A DNA stretch of 64,000 nt from Phyllosticta citribraziliensis (GCF_038025025.1 NW_027117346.1:248001-312000); one strand, 5' to 3'. Positions 45,524-64,000 are shown, numbered from the stretch's first letter. Program-made: numbers and translations. The notes: generated by a model not told the origin, from the letters alone.

Positions 45524-48043
45524 TTAGAGCTGGCCAGGCTGGGGACGAGGCTTGTAGTCGGGGAGGTACTCGAACCACTGCTCCTCAGGCTTGTAACGGT
45601 AAGCCTTGAACTCGACGCCGTACGGCTTGGGCTCCAGCATGTACAACATGCCGAGCGGGCAGTCAATGTCGGCGACCTCGGTGCGGGCAAGGCCTAAAAA
45701 GTAGGCCAACAGGACGCGAGCGACGGAGCGGTGGGTGATGAGCAGGGCGTGGTCGGTCATACGTTCCAGTTCCACAATGACTGGGCGCAGGCGATTGATG
45801 ACGTCAAGGTAACCCTCACCGCCAGGGCCGGGGTAGCGGTATTGCAGCTTGTCCTGACGCCGAAGATCGAATTCCGCGGTGTACTTTTCCCGGATCTGAT
45901 CGTAGGTCATACCCTCCATGAGACCAGCATTGAGCTCGTCCAGCATGCGCATCTGCTTGAGGTCAAAGTCCTCCTCGTCAAAGTACTGGGCCGTCTGGAT
46001 TGCTCGCTTGAGCATGGACGTCCAGACGCAGCAGTTCTTGCGCGGGGGCTCTTCCTCGGCCATGAAGTAGGGGTTTGGCGGAGACATGTCGCCGGGCTGG
46101 GGTGGGAAATGAGCCGCCATGTTCTTTTCGCGCTGGCGAATTTCCCAAGCTTCGCGCTCGTATTTGATAAACTTGGTGACAGCCTCGGCGTAGCGCCGAC
46201 CGCTCTCGCTGAGGTCCGAATCGCCGCCAATCTTGCCTGCGACATTGTCCATGGATTCCCCGTGACGCGTGATCCAAATCATCCGGGGCGCAAGGTTAAA
46301 GTTGAGCAGGTAGTAGACGGCCTGCGCAGCGATGAAGCCCCTGATTTGGTGCGAAATGACCTTGCGCCCGACATCGATCATTTGGACGTAGGCCATGTTG
46401 TTCCGCTCCTCGTAGTCTCCCAGCGGCACGTACGCCTTTTCGTAAATGGCAACACGCTTCTTAAAGTCCTCCAAGGCGACGACTGGGTCCTTGTCCTTGT
46501 AGTCGGGGCCAGAGAGCTTGAGGCGCATGTTGGATTCCAAGAGACGCTCGTCCTTGCAGAGAGACTCGACAAAGAGGACGTTGAGTTCTACGCCGCACCT
46601 GTCGCGCACACGCCTCACGATAGCAGAGCGGCGCTCGAGGGTGCTATTGGTCGCATCCAAAATGGCAACAGTTCCGCTCGTGTTTCTGAGGTAGTCGATG
46701 GCGTCGTCCAGAGTCTCCATGGCGCATTGCTCGCGCAAGAGCGCCGCCTTGTAGTTGTTGGGGTCGAAGAAGCTTGCAGACTGGTCCATGACCTCGACGG
46801 TGGGCAACCGCTCGGGCGTCTTTTGTTGAGTGAGCTCCGGGAAGGCCTCCTTGAGGAATTTGCGATCTTCCTCATCCCGCTTCTTCTCCTCCTCAATCTC
46901 GTTTGTGGGGGGAGGTGGGGTGCCATTTTGTTGGGGCACCTCGTGGCCGTTGACCAGAATCTTGGCGGCCAAGTGGGGAGGATGCAGCTGTTGCTTTTGC
47001 TCAATGACGCCCTGGGGCGCGCCAGTGGAGATGCTTTCTCGTCGCACAGAGTCGGTAGGGCGCCTCTCGGCCTTGGGCGACGGCTCAGGGTTTGAAGTGC
47101 CGCCTCCGCCGGCGGCGATGCGGCGCCGCTCGCCAACGTTGAATATGCGAGCCTCGTGTTGCAACCAATTCAAGTACCTGGCCAGCTTCTTTGTGATGTA
47201 GCTCTTGCCACGGGCGGGCAAGCCGACCATGACGATGAGGAGCTTTGCGCCCAGGTCTCGCTGAGCAATGCGGCCATCGGGGGAGATTTTGGACTTTGTG
47301 AGGCCGGGGATGTCGAGGGTGGTAGGGCGGATGCGGGGCGTGGAGCTCCCAGAGTTGCTGCGTATGGGGGGACTGTCCATGTCTGTTAGCTGTGTGTGTC
47401 TGCAAAGGGCATGACTCTGGAAGCCCAGGTATTTGATGACAGTGCGGGCAGTCGGGCCGAAGGCGCAAAATGTGGGTTGCGCACAAGCCCAGGCACCGTG
47501 GAGTGACGTCTGTTGATGCAATTGTGCACAGGGAGCGGCGACTTACATGCGGGGGCTGTTGGGGGCAGTGGTGTTGGGGGTGTCGCTTGGAGGGATGCCG
47601 ACGCCGTCTTTGGCTTGGTTTTTGGCGTGGTGGTGGTGGTGATGGGTGGTCGGTGGCAGCTTCAGGTCTGCGTCGGACGAGTGGCCATCGAGGCCCGTGG
47701 CGGCGCGAGCGCGGGGAGGAATCGAGGGCGGAGGAGCTGGAGCTGGGGTTTGCGACGGTCGTACAGGGAAAGTTTGCTGTTGCTTTTGCACGAAGCCGTC
47801 GGAAGCGGGGAGTTGGGTGGAGGTGGTGGTATTATTCATAAGGGCGACCTTGGCAAAGTCGCTGAGCTGGGACTGGTGGCGCCTAGCAATAAGCGTGTCG
47901 AGCTGGAGGAGCTTGGAGGCGGCGGGGTGGAAGTCGTAGTCGTAGTCGTAGTCGTAGTCGCGGTGGGGAGGAGGAGTTGGAGTTGGAGACGGAGTGAGAG
48001 AGCCCATGGGGGCGTACGGATGGTCAGAGGTTATTAGCGGCAT
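45524..48043 (-). CDS. 6-phosphofructo-2-kinase / fructose-2,6-bisphosphatase family (Pfk26-like), 2 exons
   Basis: P-loop VMVGLPARGKSY, FNVGERRR, ILDATNST, histidine-phosphatase WITRHGES. Exon 1 runs from ATG 48043; intron 47373-47546 (GTAAGT..CTAAC..CAG) restores SPRIPPIRSNSG. Confidence 0.92.
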
Positions 48044-49026: not shown

Positions 49027-49848
49027 GATGATGATGATGTCTAAGCGTCGATGGCTGCTTCAGTGCGTTGCACTCAGGTCGATTCGTGTGCGTAGCTCCG
49101 ACGGTCACCGACCGATGCAATCAACGGCTCCCGACCCGCAGTCTCCTGCAGCTCGCTCGTCTCAAATCTCCCTTGACGGTTCCGTTGTCGTGCTACAGAG
49201 CCCGGCTGCACACGCGATGATGAAGAGAGGTGGGAAGATGTATGATGGTGAACATGTGGCTGACCTGGTTGTCAAGCCAAGGAATATGCAGGCCGAGACG
49301 TAGGTGCAGACAGCTCGGCAGCTTAGCTTCCTGGTACTGTAGCTAGCTACCTCAGCTTGCAGCATCGTGAATCAGACGGTTCGACAACCTTTTCTTAGAG
49401 TGCTGAACCCAAACGCGTATTTTCATCGATTCTCGTTCCCCTCTGACATGTGCCTGTCGTGTGGCGCATCGGGTGGGGCTGAAGCTCTTGTGGAGCAGCC
49501 GGCGTCGGTCAACTTCCTTCCCTTGAATGTTCCCAGCGCGTCGCGAACACGTCAACCCCACGAACAAAGATCTTTCCCCTGCTCGAGCTGAACGCGGCCT
49601 GTGGAATCTGCCAATTCTTTCACCGACTTCAAAGCTTGACTGCGCCAGCGCACCGACAAGATTCAAAGGCCCCACGCGAACAAGGGCGCTGCCAGACATT
49701 CACCATTATTTTACAGCGCCGACCTCCGCTGCTGCTGCGTTTCCTCCACCACCGCAAATACACGACCGCTGCAGCTGCTCTCCACTTTTGCGCCCTCGAA
49801 TACTCCTTCCTCGACGTCCTTTGGAATAAATTACGTCCAGCACGCGTC

Positions 49849-51132
49849 ATGGCTGCCGAAGACGTCAAGTCACAGCCCGCAACGAGCAACGCGTCGTCTG
49901 GGACGAAACGGAAAAGGGCAGGCGAGCACAAGTTTTATGCCGTCAAGAATGGACACAAGCCTGGCGTCTACAGCAACTACAACGATTGCCAAGCGCAGGT
50001 CAAGGGTTTCAAGAACGCAACTTGTACACCACCAAGCAGCCCCTCCTGCCTGCATCCGCTTACTCTTCAAATCTAGTCAAGGCATTTCCCACCGCTGCCG
50101 AGGCCCAAGCATTTGTCAGATCCGGCAGTGACTCGACTACCACAGACAAGACCGACGACTCCAAAGTAACAAAGTTCTACGCGGTCCAAAACGGTCGAGT
50201 GCCTGGCGTGTATACCGACTGGGCTTCTTGCCAAAAGCAGACTACCGGCTTCTACGGTGCCAAATTCAAGTCATTTGCAACACGTGCCGAGGCAGACACA
50301 TTTGCAAAGGGCGGTAGGCCAACTGGAGGAGCTGTCGGAAACGTCTCAGTCGACGCAGACTCGCCGGCCGACAGCGGTGACGCAGCTTCGAACAAAGAAC
50401 CAGCGGCAAAGAAACAAAGAAAGAGCAATACGCCAGCCGAGGCTACTGGAGATTGGGAGCCTGGTGACGGGCCATTGCCCGAGGACGCCGAGGACAATTT
50501 CGACTCGACTATTATACTAGACCCATCGGGCAAGGTCCAGTACAAGACGGAGGAGCAAAAGAATGCCAAGAAAAAGGTTCCCACTGGCGATTCCAAGGGC
50601 GGTTCACTCGTCATCTATACGGACGGTAGCTCCCTGGGCAACGGCAAGAAGGGCGCCTTTGCTGGCGTTGGTGTCTTCTTCGGTCCCTTGGATGAGAGGT
50701 AACGCGTGCCGATCCTTGCCTTTGCCGCACAGTGCTAATAAAGTCTAAAGAAACGTCTCCGCTCCGCTTGCTGGGCCCCGTCAAACCAATCAACGAGCAG
50801 AGCTTACAGCCATCCAGCGAGCTCTCAATATCGCCCCATTGACGCGCGACGTGGAAATCTGCACTGACAGCAAATACTCCATCGACTGTGTTACCAACTG
50901 GATAATCAGCTGGAAGAAGAAGGACTGGAAGACGTCTGCTGGGAAGCCCGTGGAGAACAGAGACTTGATCGAGGCCATCGATGGCCGCATGGAAGAGAGG
51001 AAGAAGCTCAACCGCATCACCAAGTACACGTGGGTCAAGGGCCATGCCGACAACCCGGGGAACAAAGCCGCCGATGAGTTGGCAGTCCAGGGCGCTAGGA
51101 AGGCCATGGCTGATGCCAAAGTCGAGGCCTAG
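49849..51132 (+). CDS. RNH1: Ribonuclease H1 with two N-terminal hybrid-binding (caulimovirus-like) domains; 3 exons
   Basis: KFYAVKNGHKPGVY and KFYAVQNGRVPGVYTDW; catalytic IYTDGSSLGNG, TNQRAEL, ICTDSKY, WVKGHADNPGNKAADELA. Confidence 0.95.
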
Positions 51133-52365
51133 GTCTTGCAAGCGTGGGACGAGAATTTGTCGCAGCTGCAGGAGCGGCGTGAATTGCTTGCATGCTGCAG
51201 GTGAAGTTCTTGGCAGGTGTCAAAGCCAACGCCAGCCGAAGCATGAAGAGCCATAAAACACGGCTCACGGCGTGGGTCAACGTCAGGGATAGACGCTTTG
51301 CCGGCTTCCCCAAAAGTGTTTTGCGGTCGAGTATCAGAAACCACCCACGAACCACCCACGAAACGCACTCTCTTTCGCCGTCTACTCGAGATACCAACCA
51401 GAAACAGAAACGACACGCCAAGTCGAGCACGAAAGCAAAAGAAAACGGAGACAGACCAAAACCAATCACCGCTCACCCATCCCCTCATCCATCCATCCAA
51501 TCCCCTCTCACGGTCTCAGTCCCTGTATCGCCACACCAAAACACCAAGAGAGAACCAAGCCAAAAAGAAAAACATCACGAGGAACGAATGACAAGATAGA
51601 AAAGGACACGACAGGAAAAGAAAAGAAATGAACATTTTTGCTCTCTACCTATTGCCTAGCTGCCAAGCTCCGCCTCGTGATTCTCCCAAGAGTGCTGAAG
51701 TCGAGACAAGAAAAACAAGCGTAAGGTGGTAGGTGGGTGGAGCGCTGCCTGAGCTGCGTCGAGATGATGCGTTTCTGGCCACCTACCTCTGCGGGCCAAG
51801 ACGTCAGGGCAGGCAAGTACCGTACGTGCACGTCGTTTTGGCCTCCTCCTGTCTTGTCACGGTCTTGCTTCGTTGCCTGTGGCTATGGTCGTGCCGGTCG
51901 GTCATCTCGGATGCCAGCCGTCTTATGAGTCGCCCCTAACGCTTGCCTCCTGAATCGATATGGGCGTGTATGTACACCTCTCCTCGCTCCCCGCTTCCCG
52001 CACCCCGTCACTATCCGTCCCCGTCCCCGTGATCGTCTGAGGTCAGAACAGAGATGAGCGATGCCTGCCTCTCTGCAGCCCGCCGTGTCCTACCGCCACC
52101 GCGCGCCGCCACCGGGCAGCAGGTGGCGGCCTTGTACAACAACATAGCATAGTACAGTGCATCGCCCTCCCCGCGTCTTACTGCCGGCCGCTCCGACAAC
52201 TCTGTTCTAACGGTTCCACGCAGATCAGCACGAGAGAGGAATCACGCGGCGGGCTGGCCGGCGTGGACGCGCTGGTGCAGCTCGACAACAGCGCGCCACC
52301 GTCCCGTCTCGCCTCGCCTCTCGTCGTCCCGTTTGGCTAGCTAGGGCGTTGCGGGAAAGGGGGGC

Positions 52366-53472
52366 CTACCCCTTGACGAAAGAGATGAAGCTGTACGCCG
52401 TCTTGTCCGTTGGGAGACCGTCCCACAACTCCACAGGCATTGATAACAAGAGAAGTACTGAGTCAGACTCCATCGAACTGACGACCCTGATTGAGACGTT
52501 GCGCAGGTCCGGTGGAAGGTTTGTCGTGAGCCACTTGGTGAACTGTTCAGAGTCTGGCAAAGACTTCTCTCCGACAAGGCTCACTGAGATCAGTACGCGG
52601 TACTCTGATTCCCCGAGATCCAGAATAGCCTTTTTCCGGTCTTCCACCGTCAAAGTCCTGTGATTACGAGAACGATCCTGCTTCCCGAGAACCACACTTT
52701 CCTTGTCCTTCTCCAAGAGGTGCACCGGGGTTCGCAGGAGACCGTTTTGTGAGCGAGCACGAGTCAGCTCGGCGAAAATTTGCGCAACTGATTTCGGGGC
52801 GCCGTTGAGATCTTCGAGTAGTCGAGCGAGGACATTGGTGAAACTGTTCTCCAGGCTATCGCTCGCAGTGTCTGAAGGGGTGAAACCAGCGGCTCCAAGA
52901 AGCTCTGGCCCGTTGTGATAGTCGGCTGCAATCGCACTGCAGCAATCAAAGATGTGGAGATATCGTCCCTTCCTGGACCTGGCGTTTGTGCCGAATTCGC
53001 TCCATTGCGCCCAGGGCTCGATGATATGATCATTTTCGTCAGTCTGTGCAGCCCAATAAAAATCTCGGTAATTATTGCTGACTGCTGCATGACCCGAATA
53101 GACAAAAATGAGTAACGAATCGTTTTGAGCGTATCGTTCGCAAAATTGAAGAAACTTGGCCTTCAGAAATTGCTCCGGAGAGTCGTTTTCCGCCGGAATT
53201 TGGATTGTTTTACACGTGAAATTGTAAACATTAGAAAAGACATTCATCATGTTGGCTTCTGCAGTGCGACATCCCATAGTGTCACTCTCCCACGTCACTC
53301 CCAAAACTGCAACACTTCCATAAGGCGTGGAGCGTGTGGGGAACACCCTCGCCATGGCCGCCTCGACGTCCTTTACGAACTCTTGTCTCGAGGCCAAGTG
53401 GCCTCTCCGAGTGTTTGCAGAGACTGGCTTCGTAGAGTGGCCATGCAAGATTTGATCCGGCGTGGCAGGCAT
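52366..53472 (-). CDS. Caspase/metacaspase-like (peptidase C14 / caspase-hemoglobinase fold) protein, copy 1, His/Cys dyad intact
   Basis: 368-aa ORF: VAVLGVTW, LLIFVYSGHA, LHIFDCC, ELLGAAG..SFT..L, plus a conserved ~90-aa C-terminal domain. A further 3' exon is possible (GTAGGC at the stop). Confidence 0.8.
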   Translation of the reverse strand: MPATPDQILHGHSTKPVSANTRRGHLASRQEFVKDVEAAMARVFPTRSTPYGSVAVLGVTWESDTMGCRTAEANMMNVFSNVYNFTCKTIQIPAENDSPEQFLKAKFLQFCERYAQNDSLLIFVYSGHAAVSNNYRDFYWAAQTDENDHIIEPWAQWSEFGTNARSRKGRYLHIFDCCSAIAADYHNGPELLGAAGFTPSDTASDSLENSFTNVLARLLEDLNGAPKSVAQIFAELTRARSQNGLLRTPVHLLEKDKESVVLGKQDRSRNHRTLTVEDRKKAILDLGESEYRVLISVSLVGEKSLPDSEQFTKWLTTNLPPDLRNVSIRVVSSMESDSVLLLLSMPVELWDGLPTDKTAYSFISFVKG

Positions 53473-54160
53473 GTTGGCGAATAGCTCTTCCTAAATAACA
53501 GTCAGTAAGTGGAATGCCAATCGAACGTTCGGGATACCAAAGATGCTTACGGACAGGATTCTTGATCAGCGAGGTCTTGATGAGTGAGCCGTTCAAGAGG
53601 TCTTGGGTGTCCCAGGTTGGAAAGCCGTTGGTTGGCAGAGTGGTGGAGGGAGTTGCTGAATTTATATCACGCCTGCCGAACTTGACAAACGGAACCATGG
53701 ATGGAAACAAAAGGCTACCAGCCAAACTTCTAGCAGGCGCAACAAGGATTTGTCCGACTACAGTACCCTATCATCGTTTGCCAGCCCAACAAATTCTGTC
53801 GTCGTGTTTCTCAGCGATTCCACTCTCCTTTTCGCTCCTCTCTTCGCCCATGATCTTCGTTCGTCCGTTTTACGACCAACAAGATATTGCCTGATTCTTC
53901 TAGCCTCCAGCCGACTCAAACCATCGTGAGATGAGGAAACAGCCTTCTGGGAATGCCGCTGATCTCGTTTGCTACACGGGTTGTCGACACCAATCTCGTC
54001 CGCTTTCTAGCAATCATTTCTCAGCAAGCCTAAGGTCCGGGAAGGTGTCGTCGGGATTTTCGTGGAATTGCGGACTACCTGCCACCAGTTCTATCATGGG
54101 TTTGGGTTGGGGTTGCGGCACACCGGCGGGCTGCAGACAGGTAGTGGGTAGTATGTAGCC

Positions 54161-55282
54161 TTACATACTATCCTTGACGAAAGAGACAAAGCTGTACGCT
54201 GTCTTGTCAGTCGGAAGACAATCCCAGACTTCCAGGGGCATCGTGAGAAGCAAGATGATGGAATCAGCCTCCTTGGCCGTGGCAAGTCGAATGGACAGGT
54301 ATCTCAAGTCCGGTGGGAGATTTGTCGTCAACCACTGCTTCCAGCTCTCAGCATCCGGAAGCGCCGTTGGGCCGGAGAGGTTTACCGAGATCATTACTTT
54401 GTGGTCAGACTGGTTCATGGTCTCAATGCCCTTGGCTCGGTCTCCATCCGTGAGATTCAGGTGCTTTTGCGTCCGTCTGGAGAGCCTACCGAGTACGATG
54501 CTGTCCATGCCCTGCTGAAGTAGGTGAACCGGGGTTCGCTGAAGACCGGTCTCGATACGGGAGCGTACCATGTCGCTGTAAATTTGGGAAATCGACCGTG
54601 GTTTTCCGTCGAGCTTTTCCAGTTGCCTTGCTAAGATGTTGGTGAAATTGAAGTTGTAACTGGATGACGATACCATGTCGAGGCGGTGGAATCCCGAAGC
54701 ACCGAAGAACTCCGGCCCATTATCAAACCCTGCTGCAATGGCGGCACAGCAATCGAAAAGGAAAAGGTAGCGACCGCCCTTCACAGGCTCAACAAGGCCT
54801 TGGATGGACCTCCACGAAATTTGTGGCCAGCCCAGCCCCCGGTATCCTAAGCGCTCGTCGGCTCGCCCACACCAGACCATGTCCGTGTAATCTGGACTGA
54901 TTGCCGCATGGCCAGAGTACACGAGTATCATGAGAGACTCGTCCGAGTCCCACTCCGCGCGGAATGTGAAGAGCTTCTCTTGCAGGACTCCGAGGCAGTG
55001 TGGGGCTGTGTCTGAAGGCAGGACGAGAGATTCGCAGTGGAAGCCGTACGTGCTGCGCAAAACTTGCAACAAGTTCTCCTCGGCGTCCTCGCACCCCGTC
55101 AAGTCATTGTCCCAGCGAACAGCTAGGACAGCAACTTTCTTGAAAGGCGTGCTATTGGCCGGGATAGCCTTGTTCACGGCTCTCTCAATGTCTTTCAGTA
55201 GCTCTGCTCCGCTGACATGGCCTCGCTCCTCGGTGTGCGCACTCGACTTCGTGGAATGGGTTTGCGAGCCTTGATAGGACAT
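54161..55282 (-). CDS. Caspase/metacaspase-like protein, copy 2, His/Cys dyad intact
   Basis: 373-aa ORF: VAVLAVRW, LMILVYSGHA, LFLFDCC; colinear with copy 1 (WLTTNLPPDLR, PTDKTAYSF). A further 3' exon is possible (GTATGT just before the stop). Confidence 0.8.
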   Translation of the reverse strand: MSYQGSQTHSTKSSAHTEERGHVSGAELLKDIERAVNKAIPANSTPFKKVAVLAVRWDNDLTGCEDAEENLLQVLRSTYGFHCESLVLPSDTAPHCLGVLQEKLFTFRAEWDSDESLMILVYSGHAAISPDYTDMVWCGRADERLGYRGLGWPQISWRSIQGLVEPVKGGRYLFLFDCCAAIAAGFDNGPEFFGASGFHRLDMVSSSSYNFNFTNILARQLEKLDGKPRSISQIYSDMVRSRIETGLQRTPVHLLQQGMDSIVLGRLSRRTQKHLNLTDGDRAKGIETMNQSDHKVMISVNLSGPTALPDAESWKQWLTTNLPPDLRYLSIRLATAKEADSIILLLTMPLEVWDCLPTDKTAYSFVSFVKDSM

Positions 55283-56265
55283 GCTGTATGCTCCTTGAAC
55301 ACTGGTCAGTCGCGGAATCCCAGGGACTTTAGTGAGTTAAAGACTTTTACGCGCGGTGGTCGTATTGGCAATATTTTGATCAGGAAATGGCGCTATTTCA
55401 ATCAAAAAGTAGTACTATTGCAATCCAGAATTCAAGTGAAGTAAAATGAGAAGACAAAATTCTCGAACCAGTTGAAAAATTCCAGAGCACAGTACCATGG
55501 ACTGCAAACAAAATCGGGAGCTCAACAGAATCTACTACCATGGTAGTCATCTAGCTTGAATGCTCCCCATTCGGTTCGGGTAAAGCTATGTATGACTCCA
55601 TCTTCGTCTTGTTCATTTGTTTCCGTGCTGAGCTTGTCGTCAAGTGGCATCAAAGCGCTAATCCGCGAGGTCTCCGTTCCATTGGCGTTCCTTTCGCGTG
55701 CGAATGCTCCTCTTGCCTACGCGCGCCGCTCCGTCCGTCCATGCCGCGCCATCGCACGTGTCACGCCCACCCAAACCCAACTTACCTTACCCAACGCAGG
55801 AACTTGTCGGCTGGGTGTTTTAGAGTGGTGCGGTGCCTGAGCCGGGTGTTTGAGCACGCGAGCGACCACGCGAGGGGGCGGGTCGGGTCGGGCAGAGGCA
55901 CGGCGGCGCGAGCGGGAGGGTTAGGGGTGTGGTCAGGGGTAGGGAGGGTGAGTGGAGAGGTTGACAGGGGTGGTGTGGTCGGTGAAGGACGCTAGTGCGT
56001 CGGCGGCCCTGGGCTAGGTCGTGGACTAGGTAGGTAGGTAGGGCGGGAGGTAGGAAGGTGAGGTAGGTGGGTTGCGTCCAGATTTAGAGTATGTGTACGT
56101 GGATGTCGTGATGGGATGAGGGGATGATGGCGCGAGAAGGACAGGCAAGTGGGTGAGTGGTAGCAGGTATGAGCGGCCATTTACCAGCGCAGGCCACTGT
56201 CACCCCCCAACACCACCCCAGGTGCGTGAAGAGGCCAGAGAGGCAGACGGCATCAGTCCCCATCC

Positions 56266-57729
56266 CTAACCCCCACATCCTCCCCCTCCTCTGCCAGGGA
56301 GGTATCCTCCTCTCACGCCACCTCTTCCACGCATCTCCCTCCAAAGCTTCAAGTTGCGCCTTCGCGCGGGCTCCACGCCCTCAAACAGAGGCATCTCGCG
56401 CTTCAAGCGGAAACTCCTGCGCGGCCGCGGCGCAGCGGCGATGCCCACTTGTTTGGCCCAGACAGACGGCTGGGGGCGGTGATCTTGCATGTGGGAGAGG
56501 AAAGTGTACATCCTTTTGCCATAGATTGGGAATTCCTGCCACAGCTCGAGCGGAATGGACGCGATGAGGAGAGCGGTGCCGTCATTGATGTCGTCGTCAG
56601 CGGCGGTGGGAAGCTGCACCGACTCAACGCGCACCGAGTGCGGTTGGTTGAGCGGCAAGTGTGCCGTCAGCCAATCTTGCCAGTCATTAACTCCATCGAT
56701 CCAGCGGTCGCAGGCGAGACGGATGGAGAAGAGGACGCGGAGACTCTGCCGGTCCATAGCGGCAAGCGCCTCTCTGCGGCTCTCAAGTGTGAGCGAATGC
56801 TTCTGCGGCTGGCGCGCGAGGAGGGTGCTCGGCACGAATTCTTTATCAAAAGACTCTCCTCGGACTTCGTGAACGGGGACGCCGCCGAGGCCCTTCTGGA
56901 CGCGTTTGTGGGTCACTTCGCCGTGGATCTGGACGACGGAGCGGACCTCTCCATTCAGGCCCTCGAGGTGGTCTGCGAGGCTGTAGATGTACTCGTGCGG
57001 CGGCGACAGATTGGGCGACGCATCGCCGTAGGAGCTTTTGGGGCAAGACAGGGACTCGGCCAAGACATACGATTCGCCCTCGTCGACCCAAAAGCAGTCG
57101 AAAATGCGGAGGACGCGCGGGTAGTTTTGCATCGCGCCAGAATAGAAGCCGCCGTACTCGGCGAGCCTGGTGCCGTCGAGCTCGAGACCCATACTTGCAC
57201 GTTGGCTGTCCCTCGTAGTGAGCGGGTTTAGCTGCCAAGAGTAACGGCCCCGATGCAAGGCCGTCCCCCTTTCTTTGAACGCGGCAAAAGACGAGTACCC
57301 GACGTACACGATGATGGACAGCGAGTCATCCTTCTTGCAACGGTCGTGAAACTCGATCAGCGCGTTCCTGAACACATTCATCGAGGCCAGCGGGTCTCCT
57401 TCGTTGACCGCGATGACGAGCGACTCGCACGCAAAGTTGTACGTGTCGCGGAAGACGCCGAGGAGCCTCTGTTCAGCCAATTTGGCGTCCGCATCGTCGT
57501 TCTCCCAGGTGATGCCCAGGACCGTGACGCGTTGCAAGGGCGGCTCGTGGATGGGCAGGGCGCGCTCGACGGCGATTTTGAAGTCTTTGGCAAACTCCCG
57601 CGCCGACTCGAGGCGGTGTCTTGAGGGAGAGTGCAGTGGGCGAGGGAATCGCCGAGCTGGATGGCCCAAACCGCCGCAGCGGCAGCGGGGCCTTCGCTCT
57701 GAGCGGTAGTCTTCGCACGCTATGCACAT
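56266..57729 (-). CDS. Divergent caspase-like paralog, copy 3, catalytic positions substituted (putative pseudo-protease)
   Basis: 487-aa ORF: VTVLGITW, VFRDTYNFACESL, LSIIVYVGYS, LRIFDCF, LRVLFSIRL..WQDWLTAHLP..IPLELW..YTFLS. Confidence 0.75.
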   Translation of the reverse strand: MCIACEDYRSERRPRCRCGGLGHPARRFPRPLHSPSRHRLESAREFAKDFKIAVERALPIHEPPLQRVTVLGITWENDDADAKLAEQRLLGVFRDTYNFACESLVIAVNEGDPLASMNVFRNALIEFHDRCKKDDSLSIIVYVGYSSFAAFKERGTALHRGRYSWQLNPLTTRDSQRASMGLELDGTRLAEYGGFYSGAMQNYPRVLRIFDCFWVDEGESYVLAESLSCPKSSYGDASPNLSPPHEYIYSLADHLEGLNGEVRSVVQIHGEVTHKRVQKGLGGVPVHEVRGESFDKEFVPSTLLARQPQKHSLTLESRREALAAMDRQSLRVLFSIRLACDRWIDGVNDWQDWLTAHLPLNQPHSVRVESVQLPTAADDDINDGTALLIASIPLELWQEFPIYGKRMYTFLSHMQDHRPQPSVWAKQVGIAAAPRPRRSFRLKREMPLFEGVEPARRRNLKLWREMRGRGGVRGGYLPGRGGGGCGG

Positions 57730-58861
57730 GTTGAGATTGTACTGTCTGCTGAATGCAGGCGGTTCTTCTTCAGGTTGATAGCTGAATGGAGCGAGTGCTT
57801 GTCCAGACGAAAGGAAACGGCGATTGTGAGAGAAGGAGAGGGTTTTAATAGATTTGGGTACTAGGGCAGCGGAGCGAACAGTTGAGAGAATATTACCGTT
57901 GACCTAACTCAGCAAGTTGAGGTGACTCACAATGGCCGTTGAGTGTTGACCTCCCTCTCTCCCTCTCTTCCAGTCTACTAGCAACAGCAACGGACCACAA
58001 CAGCTACATGCGTCATAATGCCACCTTGAAGCGGTGCACTGTCGACCCATGGTTCTGCTCGTCTACCGTCCCTCTAGGCGAAGCTCTTTGGAACATGCTA
58101 GACTGTTCGTAGAAACCAGTCATCAGTGCAGAGAGACAAGCGACGATTGACGCGCACGCAACCAGACACAAGCATTCTGGATGATGGCACATCCGCATCT
58201 CCCTACGACCAAGAGTCGCTGAGCCGGAGAGTTGCGATGAAAGTGGGACACCATTGACAGACAAAGCAAATCCTCAAACGCGTTTCTGGAAGACAGTGAT
58301 AGTGGTCAGGCAAAGAATAGCTTCCATGCCACGCCCCCGAGGCCAGGGGTCGTGCGCATGGCTGACACGTGGCCGCTGGGTGGGAGTGAGGTGTAAGGTG
58401 CTGGCTGCCAGATGCCAGGTGTTCAAAGGAGGGCTCGCTCGGACGGTTGGGCGCGCGTGCCAAGCAAGGAAGCAATCAGAGCGCGTGGCTACTGCCTATT
58501 GATTCACGGGGCTTGTGAAACTGGAGAAAAGAAAGTGTGAAAGGTGTGGGGCCGCTTGTGGGATGGAAGAAACGTACGCTCGCTGGGCGGAAGAAAGAGA
58601 AGAGAATCAGGCCGAGGTAAACAGCCACCCGACGGTTGAAGCTCGTTGCGTGTCGGACAAGCACATCGATCATGTCAATTGCTGCGGAGAATATGCAGAA
58701 GATGATCTCAAAAGGCCCGACCGAGCAGAGTGTTGGTTGAAGAGTAGGCACTGTTGGAACACATGATCTTATTGATACTCTTCTAGAACGTTATGTACGG
58801 CCATCATCGAGTGATGACTAGGAAAGGGACGCGCACCGTTAAATTCAAAGCCTCCAAATTT

Positions 58862-61844: not shown

Positions 61845-64000
61845 ATGGCGGACAACGAGCCCTACGCTGCTGAACAGCAGCAGCAGCAGCAGCACAACTC
61901 CGAGGGCCCCAACTTTGACGAGAAGCAGCAGTATGCCCAGCAGGAAAAGTCCACCAATCTCCCTGGCATCAAGCCCGGCGAGGACGACGAGGAAGACGAG
62001 GACATGGACGCCCTCATTGAGGAGCTCGAATCGCAAGACGCCAACATCGACGCCGAAGAGGAAGACACGCAACAGCCCGGTGGCGCTCGCCCAGTAGCCG
62101 AGGAGCTCCTCCAGACCAGCACCGTCCACGGTCTCACCACCGAAGAGGTGACGCAGCGTAGGAAGAAATTCGGCCTCAACCAGATGAAGGAGGAGAAGGA
62201 GAACCTCGTCCTCAAGTTTCTCATGTACTTTGTCGGCCCCATCCAGTTCGTCATGGAGGTGAGAAATTCTGTTGATCCTTGCGCCCCAAACATTGCGCTG
62301 TTGCTGATGTGGCTACCGCGCTAGGCCGCCGCTATTCTCGCCGCCGGTTTGCAGGATTGGGTCGATTTTGGCGTCATCTGCGCCCTGCTGCTGCTCAACG
62401 CGACTGTCGGTTTCGTTCAGGAATTCCAGGCCGGCTCCATTGTCGACGAACTGAAAAAGACGCTCGCGCTCAAGGCCACCGTGCTGCGCAATGGCACTCT
62501 GCAGGAAGTCGAAGCTCCCGAAGTCGTTCCTGGTGACATTCTGCAGCTCGAGGAGGTAAGCCAACCTTGTTTTTCTGCTCGTGTTGAGATTTCTCACCTC
62601 CCGCTTAGGGCACCATCATCCCTGCCGACGGCCGCATCGTAACCGACGATGCCTTTCTCCAGGTCGACCAGTCTGCCATTACCGGCGAGTCTCTTGCCGT
62701 GGACAAGCACAAGGGTGACACTTGCTACGCGTCGTCGGCCGTCAAGCGCGGCGAGGCCTTCATGGTCGTCGCCGCGACCGGTGACAGCACATTTGTCGGT
62801 CGCGCTGCTTCGCTCGTCGCGTCGGCTTCTTCGGGTACTGGCCACTTTACAGAGGTGCTCAACGGTATCGGCACGGTCCTCCTGATTTTGGTCATTCTCA
62901 CCCTGCTGGTTGTCTGGGTCTCGTCCTTTTACCGTTCCAACCCAATTGTCACCATCCTCGAATTTACCCTCGCCATCACCATCATCGGCGTGCCAGTCGG
63001 TCTGCCGGCCGTCGTCACCACCACCATGGCTGTCGGCGCTGCCTATTTGGCCAAGAAGCAAGCCATTGTTCAGAAGCTTTCGGCCATTGAATCGCTTGCT
63101 GGTGTCGAAATCCTCTGTTCCGACAAGACTGGTACTTTGACCAAGAACAAGCTTTCCCTGGCCGAGCCGTACACTGTTTCTGGAGTCGAGCCCGAAGATC
63201 TCATGCTCACGGCCTGTCTTGCTGCTTCTCGCAAGAAAAAGGGTATTGATGCCATTGACAAGGCGTTCCTGAAATCCCTCAGATTCTACCCTCGCGCCAA
63301 GTCGGTCTTGGCCAAGTACAAGGTTTTGGAGTTCCACCCATTCGATCCCGTCTCAAAGAAGGTTCAGGCCGTTGTCGAGTCTCCGCAGGGAGAGCGCATC
63401 GTCTGTGTCAAGGGTGCCCCGCTCTTCGTCTTGAAGACTGTTGAGGAAGATCACCCGATTCCCGATGCGGTCGACGAGGCCTACAAAAACAAGGTTGCGG
63501 AATTCGCTACCCGCGGTTTCCGTTCGCTCGGTGTTGCCCGTAAGCGCGGCGATAGCTCGTGGGAAATCCTGGGTATCATGCCTTGCTCTGACCCTCCTCG
63601 TCATGACACTGCGCGCACAATTAACGAAGCCAAGACTCTCGGTCTTTCCATCAAGATGTTGACGGGTGATGCCGTCGGTATCGCTCGTGAAACGTCTCGT
63701 CAATTGGGTCTCGGTACCAACGTCTACAACGCGGAGCGTCTTGGTCTTGGCGGCGGTGGTGAGATGCCTGGTTCCGAGGTCTACGACTTTGTCGAAGCCG
63801 CCGACGGATTCGCAGAAGTTTTCCCCCAGCACAAGTACAATGTCGTCGAAATTCTGCAGCAGCGTGGCTATCTGGTTGCCATGACTGGCGATGGTGTCAA
63901 CGATGCGCCTTCGCTGAAAAAGGCTGACACGGGTATCGCCGTCGAGGGCGCCTCTGACGCTGCGCGGTCTGCCGCTGATATCGTCTTCCTTGCTCCTGGT
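61845..64000 (+). CDS. PMA1: Plasma-membrane H+-ATPase (P3A-type), 3'-truncated by the window end
   Basis: ATG 61845; [43 protein letters not shown] (phospho-Asp), [25 protein letters not shown]. Introns at ~62259-62324 and ~62556-62609. Confidence 0.98.

Follow-up and report, generated by a model that had tools for sequence, protein, structure and literature searches.

The stretch of the Phyllosticta citribraziliensis genome analyzed here (64,000 nucleotides, GCF_038025025.1, NW_027117346.1:248001-312000; below, the window) carries on its minus strand a tandem of three paralogous genes, arranged head to tail and contained within 5.4 kb. The subject of this analysis is copy 3, in which both residues of the His–Cys dyad of the family are replaced.

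52366-53472, minus strand: copy 1, 368 amino acids, dyad His128/Cys178 intact.
54161-55282, minus strand: copy 2, an open reading frame (ORF) of 373 amino acids, dyad His125/Cys179 intact.
56266-57729, minus strand: copy 3, an intronless ORF of 487 codons plus stop, predicted to encode a caspase-fold pseudo-protease.

Copies 1 and 2 are 47% identical, and copy 3 is 29% identical to each of them. Searches with copies 1 and 3 (tblastn) find no fourth copy or fragment in the 64-kb window. The array thus places a dyad-less paralog next to dyad-bearing, active-type ones.

In copy 1, His128 is encoded by CAT (53089-53091), within LIFVYSGHAAV, and Cys178 by TGC (52939-52941), within IFDCCSAI; in copy 2, His125 is encoded by CAT (54908-54910) and Cys179 by TGT (54746-54748). 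All four codons are in frame, and both copies carry the motifs VYSGH and FDCC. The corresponding codons of copy 3, together with the two residues directly ahead of the second position, are as follows.

57295-57297, minus strand: codon TAC, Tyr145, at the catalytic His position, in IIVYVGYSSF.
57091-57093, minus strand: codon TTT, Phe213, at the catalytic Cys position, in RIFDCFWVD.
57094-57099, minus strand: retained Asp211-Cys212; the Asp lies two residues ahead of the nucleophile position (an S1 residue in metacaspases and paracaspases), and Cys212 corresponds to the first, non-essential Cys of DCC.

Hence, copy 3 (Tyr145/Phe213) lacks the dyad with which the two central strands end in copies 1 and 2. 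The hydrophobic strands ahead of both positions align without gaps with those of copies 1 and 2, and the frame of copy 3 runs free of stops from ATG to TAG over 487 codons, with no frameshift. The original prediction, made from these DNA letters alone, had claimed exactly this, i.e., a Tyr in place of the His, a Phe in place of the D-x-C Cys, an open 487-codon frame, and retained strands; every codon quoted in it is found in frame. Both dyad residues are kept in 112 of the 125 family sequences that align at both positions, at least one is gone in 13, and both are gone in six. The double substitution of copy 3 is more than a chance pattern.

The same prediction had assumed that the two positions are catalytic; this label is supported by fold comparison (see below) and by profile comparison. 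A family profile (A1), built from the three copies and four Phyllosticta relatives, was scored against 1.84 billion representative proteins, yielding 2138 matches at E ≤ 1e-3, of which 677 pass E ≤ 1e-10 and 81 pass E ≤ 1e-30. In the profile alignments, YsGHg falls on YSGHG of Arabidopsis metacaspase 4 (AtMC4; E 0.004) and of yeast Yca1 (E 0.05), and IlDCCyA falls on LFDSCHSG of Yca1, so that the second Cys of DCC coincides with the metacaspase cysteine. A 99-row family alignment (A4), used for column counts, AlphaFold models, and the tree, shows C in 89 of 98 non-gap rows at this second Cys; the first-Cys column, in contrast, is variable (C 79, S 10, T 7). Because of the Yca1 alignment and of this difference in conservation, the second Cys of DCC is taken as the nucleophile position, as the original D-x-C reading had it, and the possibility that the first Cys is the nucleophile is not borne out. 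The identity of the nucleophile itself rests on the PDB titles "Yca1 C276A" and "TbMCA2 C213A" and on the S1-pocket role of Asp211, two residues earlier in TbMCA2 (PMC4357240). In the His column, H occupies 83 of the 94 non-gap rows; of the 11 that lack His, 7 have Tyr, the most frequent substitute at this position.

Two further positions near the dyad are conserved across the family and kept in copy 3. Of 94 non-gap rows, 93 have the Gly that precedes the His (Gly144), and Asp211 is found in 94 of 98 rows, including copy 3 and its two dyad-less relatives P0001 and P0010 (described below). According to a published account, the Gly adjacent to the catalytic His is important in clan CD; Asp211 of TbMCA2 and Asp462 of MALT1 are S1 residues, this Asp helping to form an acidic S1 pocket for Arg/Lys; and caspase-7 has Gln184 instead of Asp two residues before Cys186 (PMC4357240).

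Copy 3 might still be a hydrolase acting through other residues, e.g., with Cys212 as the nucleophile and a different general base. Cys212 is indeed invariant in the three members of the copy 3 clade, and the adjacent Asp211 is kept; however, across the family the Cys212 column is the variable C/S/T one (79/10/7), and the alignment with Yca1 puts the nucleophile one residue later. Moreover, all three clade members have Tyr in place of the general-base His; a single other His, His287, is shared outside the clade, and it is a 60% consensus residue in dyad-bearing members as well, hence no new base. We regard continued hydrolysis as highly improbable.

The protein nearest to copy 3 is P0001 from Phyllosticta capitalensis (494 amino acids; E 6.8e-91), 41% identical by BLASTP over 95% of copy 3 and 44% identical in the alignment, with VYLGYTS and FDCFW at the dyad positions (Tyr/Phe). 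P0010 from the same species (504 amino acids; 33–35% identical to copy 3) has VYLGYAS and FDCPW (Tyr/Pro). At least these two relatives of the copy 3 type are present among 152 proteins from the searches, which include the best 150 of the 2138 profile matches; the searches with copy 3 and with a profile of its clade covered up to 8000 candidates, a pool that the low-complexity RGG tail may have filled, so that more proteins of this type may exist. In the maximum-likelihood tree of 99 family members, from which the two dyad columns had been removed, copy 3 groups with P0001 with a Shimodaira–Hasegawa-like approximate likelihood ratio test (SH-aLRT) support of 98, P0010 joins them with 98, and the resulting clade is sister (support 85) to the group of copies 1 and 2 with their Phyllosticta relatives. 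Since P0001 and P0010 also lack the dyad and form one supported clade with copy 3, the loss is old and inherited rather than a lesion of this strain, and the tree places it once, in the ancestor of the three. Relatives retaining His and Cys, which would have pointed to a strain-specific event, are not what this clade contains. Tyr is shared by all three proteins and Phe by copy 3 and P0001, with Pro in P0010. Over the whole 99-row tree, at least five His to Tyr changes and at least four double losses of the dyad are needed.

Members of this clade also share features at both ends of the protein. An N-terminal MCxxC with a second Cys pair occurs in only three of 154 family sequences, i.e., in copy 3, P0001, and P0010, and the same holds for a C-terminal Arg/Gly-rich (RGG) tail. 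Copy 3 aligns with P0001 over its full length, the MCxxC start included, and the terminal motifs match to the ends; these shared motifs show that the 487-codon frame is the real protein over its whole extent. The layout of copy 3 is as follows.

57670-57729, minus strand: N-terminal four-Cys motif (MCxxC ... CxC), clade-specific; all clade members have C2, C5, and C16.
56794-57591, minus strand: caspase-hemoglobinase fold domain, about residues 47-312, predicted by AlphaFold, VIA, and Foldseek.
57130-57282, minus strand: lineage-variable insertion (residues 150-200) that separates the strand of the His from that of the Cys, with a predicted local distance difference test score (pLDDT) of about 50-55 (blocks 151-200); its length differs between copy 3, P0001, and P0010.
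56485-56787, minus strand: C-terminal alpha/beta domain, family-wide, about residues 315-415, pLDDT 80-94, with conserved P359, P393, and W397.
56269-56439, minus strand: C-terminal tail, a basic motif PRRSxRLK followed by an Arg/Gly-rich (RGG) stretch, pLDDT <50.

The Cys-rich N-terminus is short and modeled with low confidence, and in the tail the segment P436-K443 is invariant in the three clade members at all positions but one.

The AlphaFold model of copy 1 has a pLDDT of 91.4, and that of copy 3 a pLDDT of 74.4, with 202 residues at ≥90 and most of the core above 85. Structure comparison (VIA) of the copy 1 model with 48,161 PDB representatives gives Z 17.8 for AtMC4, 17.6 for the MALT1 caspase domain, 17.4 for both GPI8 and legumain, 16.8–17.2 for caspases-3, -8, and -9, and 15.0 for the protease-like domain of c-FLIP(L) (3h13_A); all listed caspase-type matches lie on residues about 46–273. 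Raptor structures are at Z 10–11.6, and C11 proteases, aligned across both the caspase and the C-terminal domains of this model, at only Z 9–10. For the copy 3 model the same comparison yields caspase-3 (7xn4_A, Z 15.4, root-mean-square deviation 3.2, 195 residues aligned), caspase-6 (15.3), and AtMC4 (6w8r_A, 15.2); the chain 3h11_B of the caspase-8:c-FLIP(L) complex has Z 14.3. Foldseek finds 98 matches of the copy 3 model at E ≤ 0.001, with TbMCA2 (E 1.2e-6), MALT1, and caspases leading; E-values for the two models are about 1e-6 to 1e-5. Both copy 1 and copy 3 are thus predicted to adopt the caspase/metacaspase fold.

A direct sequence search of copy 1 against PDB chains yields nothing (best E 1.5), and the link of the three copies to Peptidase_C14 is transitive, via more distant family members. 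Among 28 profile matches scanned with Pfam, 10 reach the Peptidase_C14 gathering score (21.4 bits) and five more stay below it, two pass the gathering score of Raptor_N, and seven match no family. The ESM Atlas neighbors of copies 1 and 3 are Ascomycota clusters with PF00656 on 20–60% of members, and a 487-residue sequence identical to copy 3 is contained in this resource. The family is a large, mostly Pfam-unannotated set of caspase-fold cysteine proteases (clan CD, distant Peptidase_C14), seemingly of Ascomycota. In other fungi, its caspase-like module is also found fused to other domains (P0047, P0085, P0066, P0072, P0090, P0078, P0094, P0107, P0134), i.e., to HET in two proteins, to ankyrin and TPR in one, to a Tle1-like lipase in two, and to a homeodomain and rhodanese in four; the combination of homeodomain, rhodanese, and caspase-like module is unusual.

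Conservation outside the dyad bears on whether copy 3 is maintained. Nine columns of the 99-row alignment are conserved to at least 90%, and copy 3 keeps them all (L137, G144, D211, E225, L255, P285, P359, P393, and W397; the dyad is not among them). Of the 74 columns with at least 60% consensus among the 80 dyad-bearing rows, 45 are kept in copy 3, 51 in P0001, 54 in P0010, 61 in copy 1, and 54 in copy 2; at the 18 columns with at least 90% consensus in the dyad-bearing rows, P0010 departs only at the dyad. The codon-position bias of copy 3 is strong, with a G+C content at third codon positions (GC3) of 0.75 (0.78 in the core), compared to 0.66 in copy 2 and 0.58 in copy 1. In its sequence, 3.5% of random point substitutions would create a stop; the chance of a neutral frame of this length staying open falls to 5% after about 0.06 substitutions per site, and the end branch of copy 3 is 0.98 per column.

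No run recorded as RNA covers the stretch. Two sequencing runs, X1 and X2, provide contigs over the locus; the kind of run is unrecorded and can be taken for RNA by guess only, and at other sites of the stretch their contigs carry GT..AG joints, as expected of RNA. Gaps in the contig cover (e.g., 53242-53448 and 54691-54897 in X1) and contig depths are given no weight here. An X1 contig of 2685 nucleotides covers 55420-58104, including all of copy 3, without joints, and would weakly fit an unspliced transcript over this gene. The sole difference in the contig, C to G at 56282 (plus strand), changes Gly483 of copy 3 to Ala in the RGG tail.

Alternatively, copy 3 could have been inactivated recently and be decaying in this genome, its open frame being a leftover. 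An end branch of 0.98 against 0.50 for P0001 and the lower number of consensus columns (45 of 74, against 51 in P0001 and 54 in P0010) are consistent with that, and in the case of a very recent inactivation the frame would survive 0.01–0.02 neutral substitutions per site with a probability of 0.36–0.6. However, the loss of the dyad is old, being common to the intact P0001 and P0010; the 487-codon frame is undisturbed by stops or frameshifts, and its GC3 is the strongest of the three copies; the terminal motifs coincide with those of P0001 right up to both ends; 202 residues are modeled at pLDDT ≥90; and the X1 contig, of whatever kind and strand, covers the whole ORF. Decay therefore seems very unlikely to us. 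Retention of copy 3, as the original prediction had proposed, is supported by the open frame, the highest GC3 in the array, the confident caspase-fold model, and the terminal motifs conserved within the clade.

Taken with the neighboring dyad-bearing copies, these observations make it likely that copy 3 is a catalytically dead member of a caspase-fold family, its dyad having disappeared in a single event before the clade diversified, and that it works as a non-cleaving binding module; it is probably kept for binding or regulation. Active members of the family would cut after Arg or Lys, to judge by their D-x-C, as in metacaspases and paracaspases; copy 3 would no longer cleave and would still act as a binding module. 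This view draws on the retention of Asp211 and of the Gly before the former His, since an acidic pocket is likewise kept in pseudo-orthocaspases: one report describes bacterial pseudo-orthocaspases that keep the acidic pocket, and the processing of TbMCA4 by the active TbMCA3 (PMC6426788).

Several observations weigh against retention as a binding module, or loosen its footing. None of the three copies matches a Pfam family, with no PF00656 hit at E ≤ 1, and the sequence link of the family to solved metacaspases is weak (E 0.004–0.05), though in agreement with the fold result. Apart from the dyad, copy 3 and P0001 have lost four more of the columns with at least 90% consensus (W186, A229, T248, and S385); these are plausibly parts of a former substrate site, and their loss could also reflect relaxed constraint. 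Summed from the node shared with copies 1 and 2, the branches amount to about 1.63 for copy 3, 1.15 for P0001, 1.13 for P0010, 0.57 for copy 1, and 0.65 for copy 2, and the end branch of copy 3 is twice that of P0001. Nei–Gojobori (NG86) estimates among the paralogs are uninformative for dN/dS, dS being saturated or not computable (-1 for copies 1–2 and 1–3, and 2.0–2.6 for copies 2–3). Among the matches listed, the only relatives of the copy 3 type are P0001 and P0010, both from one species and at 41–44% and 33–35% identity, and they may be old paralogs rather than strict orthologs of copy 3; copy 2, for comparison, has an ortholog at 83%.

Copy 3 belongs to an already known kind of protein, the pseudo-caspases, with clan CD membership by fold and transitive homology only, not by a direct Pfam C14 match. 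It resembles c-FLIP(L) in being a dead caspase-fold paralog near active-type paralogs, with the catalytic residues replaced and the fold kept. By a published account, CFLAR lies beside CASP8 and CASP10 at 2q33.1, arose by gene duplication, and encodes a protein that heterodimerises with caspase-8 (PMC7586951). Unlike c-FLIP(L), copy 3 is fungal, has neither tandem death-effector domains nor any other Pfam domain, and carries a D-x-C of the metacaspase/paracaspase type, not Q-A-C; moreover, heterodimerisation defines c-FLIP, whereas copy 3 is known here from its sequence and model.

A second parallel is with TbMCA1 and TbMCA4 of Trypanosoma brucei and with bacterial pseudo-orthocaspases (YS and YN variants). 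Common features are the His to Tyr change in a C14B-type p20 fold and the kept acidic specificity pocket, and, as in the family of copy 3, pseudo-variants arise repeatedly from active relatives (PMC6426788); the recurrent His to Tyr changes in this family echo the YS/YN variants and TbMCA4. In contrast to the YS pseudo-orthocaspases and TbMCA4, the second position is Phe (copy 3 and P0001) or Pro (P0010), not Ser or Asn, so that copy 3 lacks the His to Tyr plus Cys to Ser pair; it also carries the C-terminal alpha/beta domain of the fungal family, the added four-Cys N-terminus, and the RGG tail, and, compared to the bacterial proteins, it is eukaryotic. Metacaspases are further marked by a p10-like region with Ca-binding Asp residues, and the paracaspase by an Ig3 domain; the C-terminal part of the present family is a mixed alpha/beta unit. 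The N-terminal domain of Raptor likewise uses a caspase fold in non-proteolytic scaffolding, and two of the 28 scanned family members reach Raptor_N; copy 3, however, has no Raptor_N hit and no HEAT or WD40 context, being small, stand-alone, and part of an array of paralogs.

If copy 3 is a binding module, its most likely specific role, still a tentative one, lies with the active paralogs: copy 3 would be their partner, their decoy, or a substrate that they process, by analogy to cFLIP with caspase-8 or to TbMCA4 with TbMCA3. Such a role leads among the specific models because of the tandem array and the conserved Arg-rich tail, which might act as a docking or pseudo-substrate element.

A non-catalytic function independent of the paralogs is the main alternative, though a doubtful one. 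The caspase fold would then be a scaffold, the four-Cys N-terminus and the RGG tail making copy 3 a nucleic-acid-binding or condensate-forming protein; RGG boxes bind RNA. The restriction of CxxC...CxC and the RGG tail to the copy 3 clade (3 of 154 sequences) fits such a function, as does the loss of W186 and of the SFT motif in copy 3 and P0001, which suggests that upkeep of the former substrate site has ceased. On the other hand, Asp211 of S1, Gly144, Glu225, and the PxH motif are all kept; the tail motif RLK[RH]E.P resembles [RK]KEN[IL]P of the dyad-bearing P0003 and P0006-P0008, so the tail is partly not new; and copy 3 is still linked in tandem with active paralogs.

The partner or decoy role can be extended to the array as a whole. 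It might form a self-contained protease–regulator module paralleling CASP8/CASP10/CFLAR, with copies 1 and 2 as Arg/Lys proteases and copy 3 as their dedicated dead partner or decoy, a proposal that we consider unlikely in this full form. The acidic S1 pocket of copy 3 would still bind basic peptides, and its PRRSxRLK/RGG tail would dock or be cleaved. Were this true, the array would have its place in a fungal proteolytic pathway of the cell-death or immunity type, with a pseudo-caspase regulator that evolved independently; the placement in such a pathway draws on the fusion of the same protease module elsewhere to HET, ankyrin/TPR, and lipase domains.

We also note some features of the other copies and of the surroundings. 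Copy 2 is 83% identical to its ortholog P0003 from Phyllosticta citrichinensis. At its 3' end (about 54070-54170) the ORF closes with ...FVKDSM*, and the DNA there, GAT A|GTATGT, contains a consensus fungal 5' splice site; P0003 runs on past this end into a tail with a KENIP motif. Because of the splice site at the ORF end and the longer tail of P0003, a 3' intron followed by a short second exon is probable for copy 2, the 373-residue ORF being an incomplete protein.

Over most of the copy 1 ORF (52000-53216), contigs of 4043 (X1) and 753 (X2) nucleotides are found, whose joints 52454/52507 and 53037/53102 skip 52 and 64 nucleotides; read on the plus strand, the skipped parts are bounded by GT..AG and contain CTGAC branch-like motifs, and they therefore suggest spliced RNA antisense to copy 1. 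The second skipped part includes the His codon of copy 1. Possibly, this RNA is an extended 3' portion of the RNase H1 gene that lies upstream on the plus strand.

The genes near the array are ordinary housekeeping genes, and the context is not obviously that of secondary metabolism or mobile elements.

45524-47521, minus strand: 6-phosphofructo-2-kinase/fructose-2,6-bisphosphatase.
49636-51100, plus strand: RNase H1 with two N-terminal RNase H1-type domains.
62699-64000, plus strand: P-type ATPase.

Dead paralogs with a caspase fold are key regulators elsewhere, e.g., c-FLIP for cell death in humans and TbMCA4 for the virulence of trypanosomes. A limited search of the open-access literature, which is not proof of absence, found no paper on this fungal family, and hence no dead paralog described so far for it, large as it is. 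The locus of copy 3 offers a natural comparison, with active-type and dead copies side by side, and a route to the substrates and the control of these proteases. The repeated loss of the dyad within the family matches the pattern of bacterial pseudo-orthocaspases and, given the double losses and His to Tyr events on the tree, suggests a general route from a caspase-fold enzyme to a binding module.

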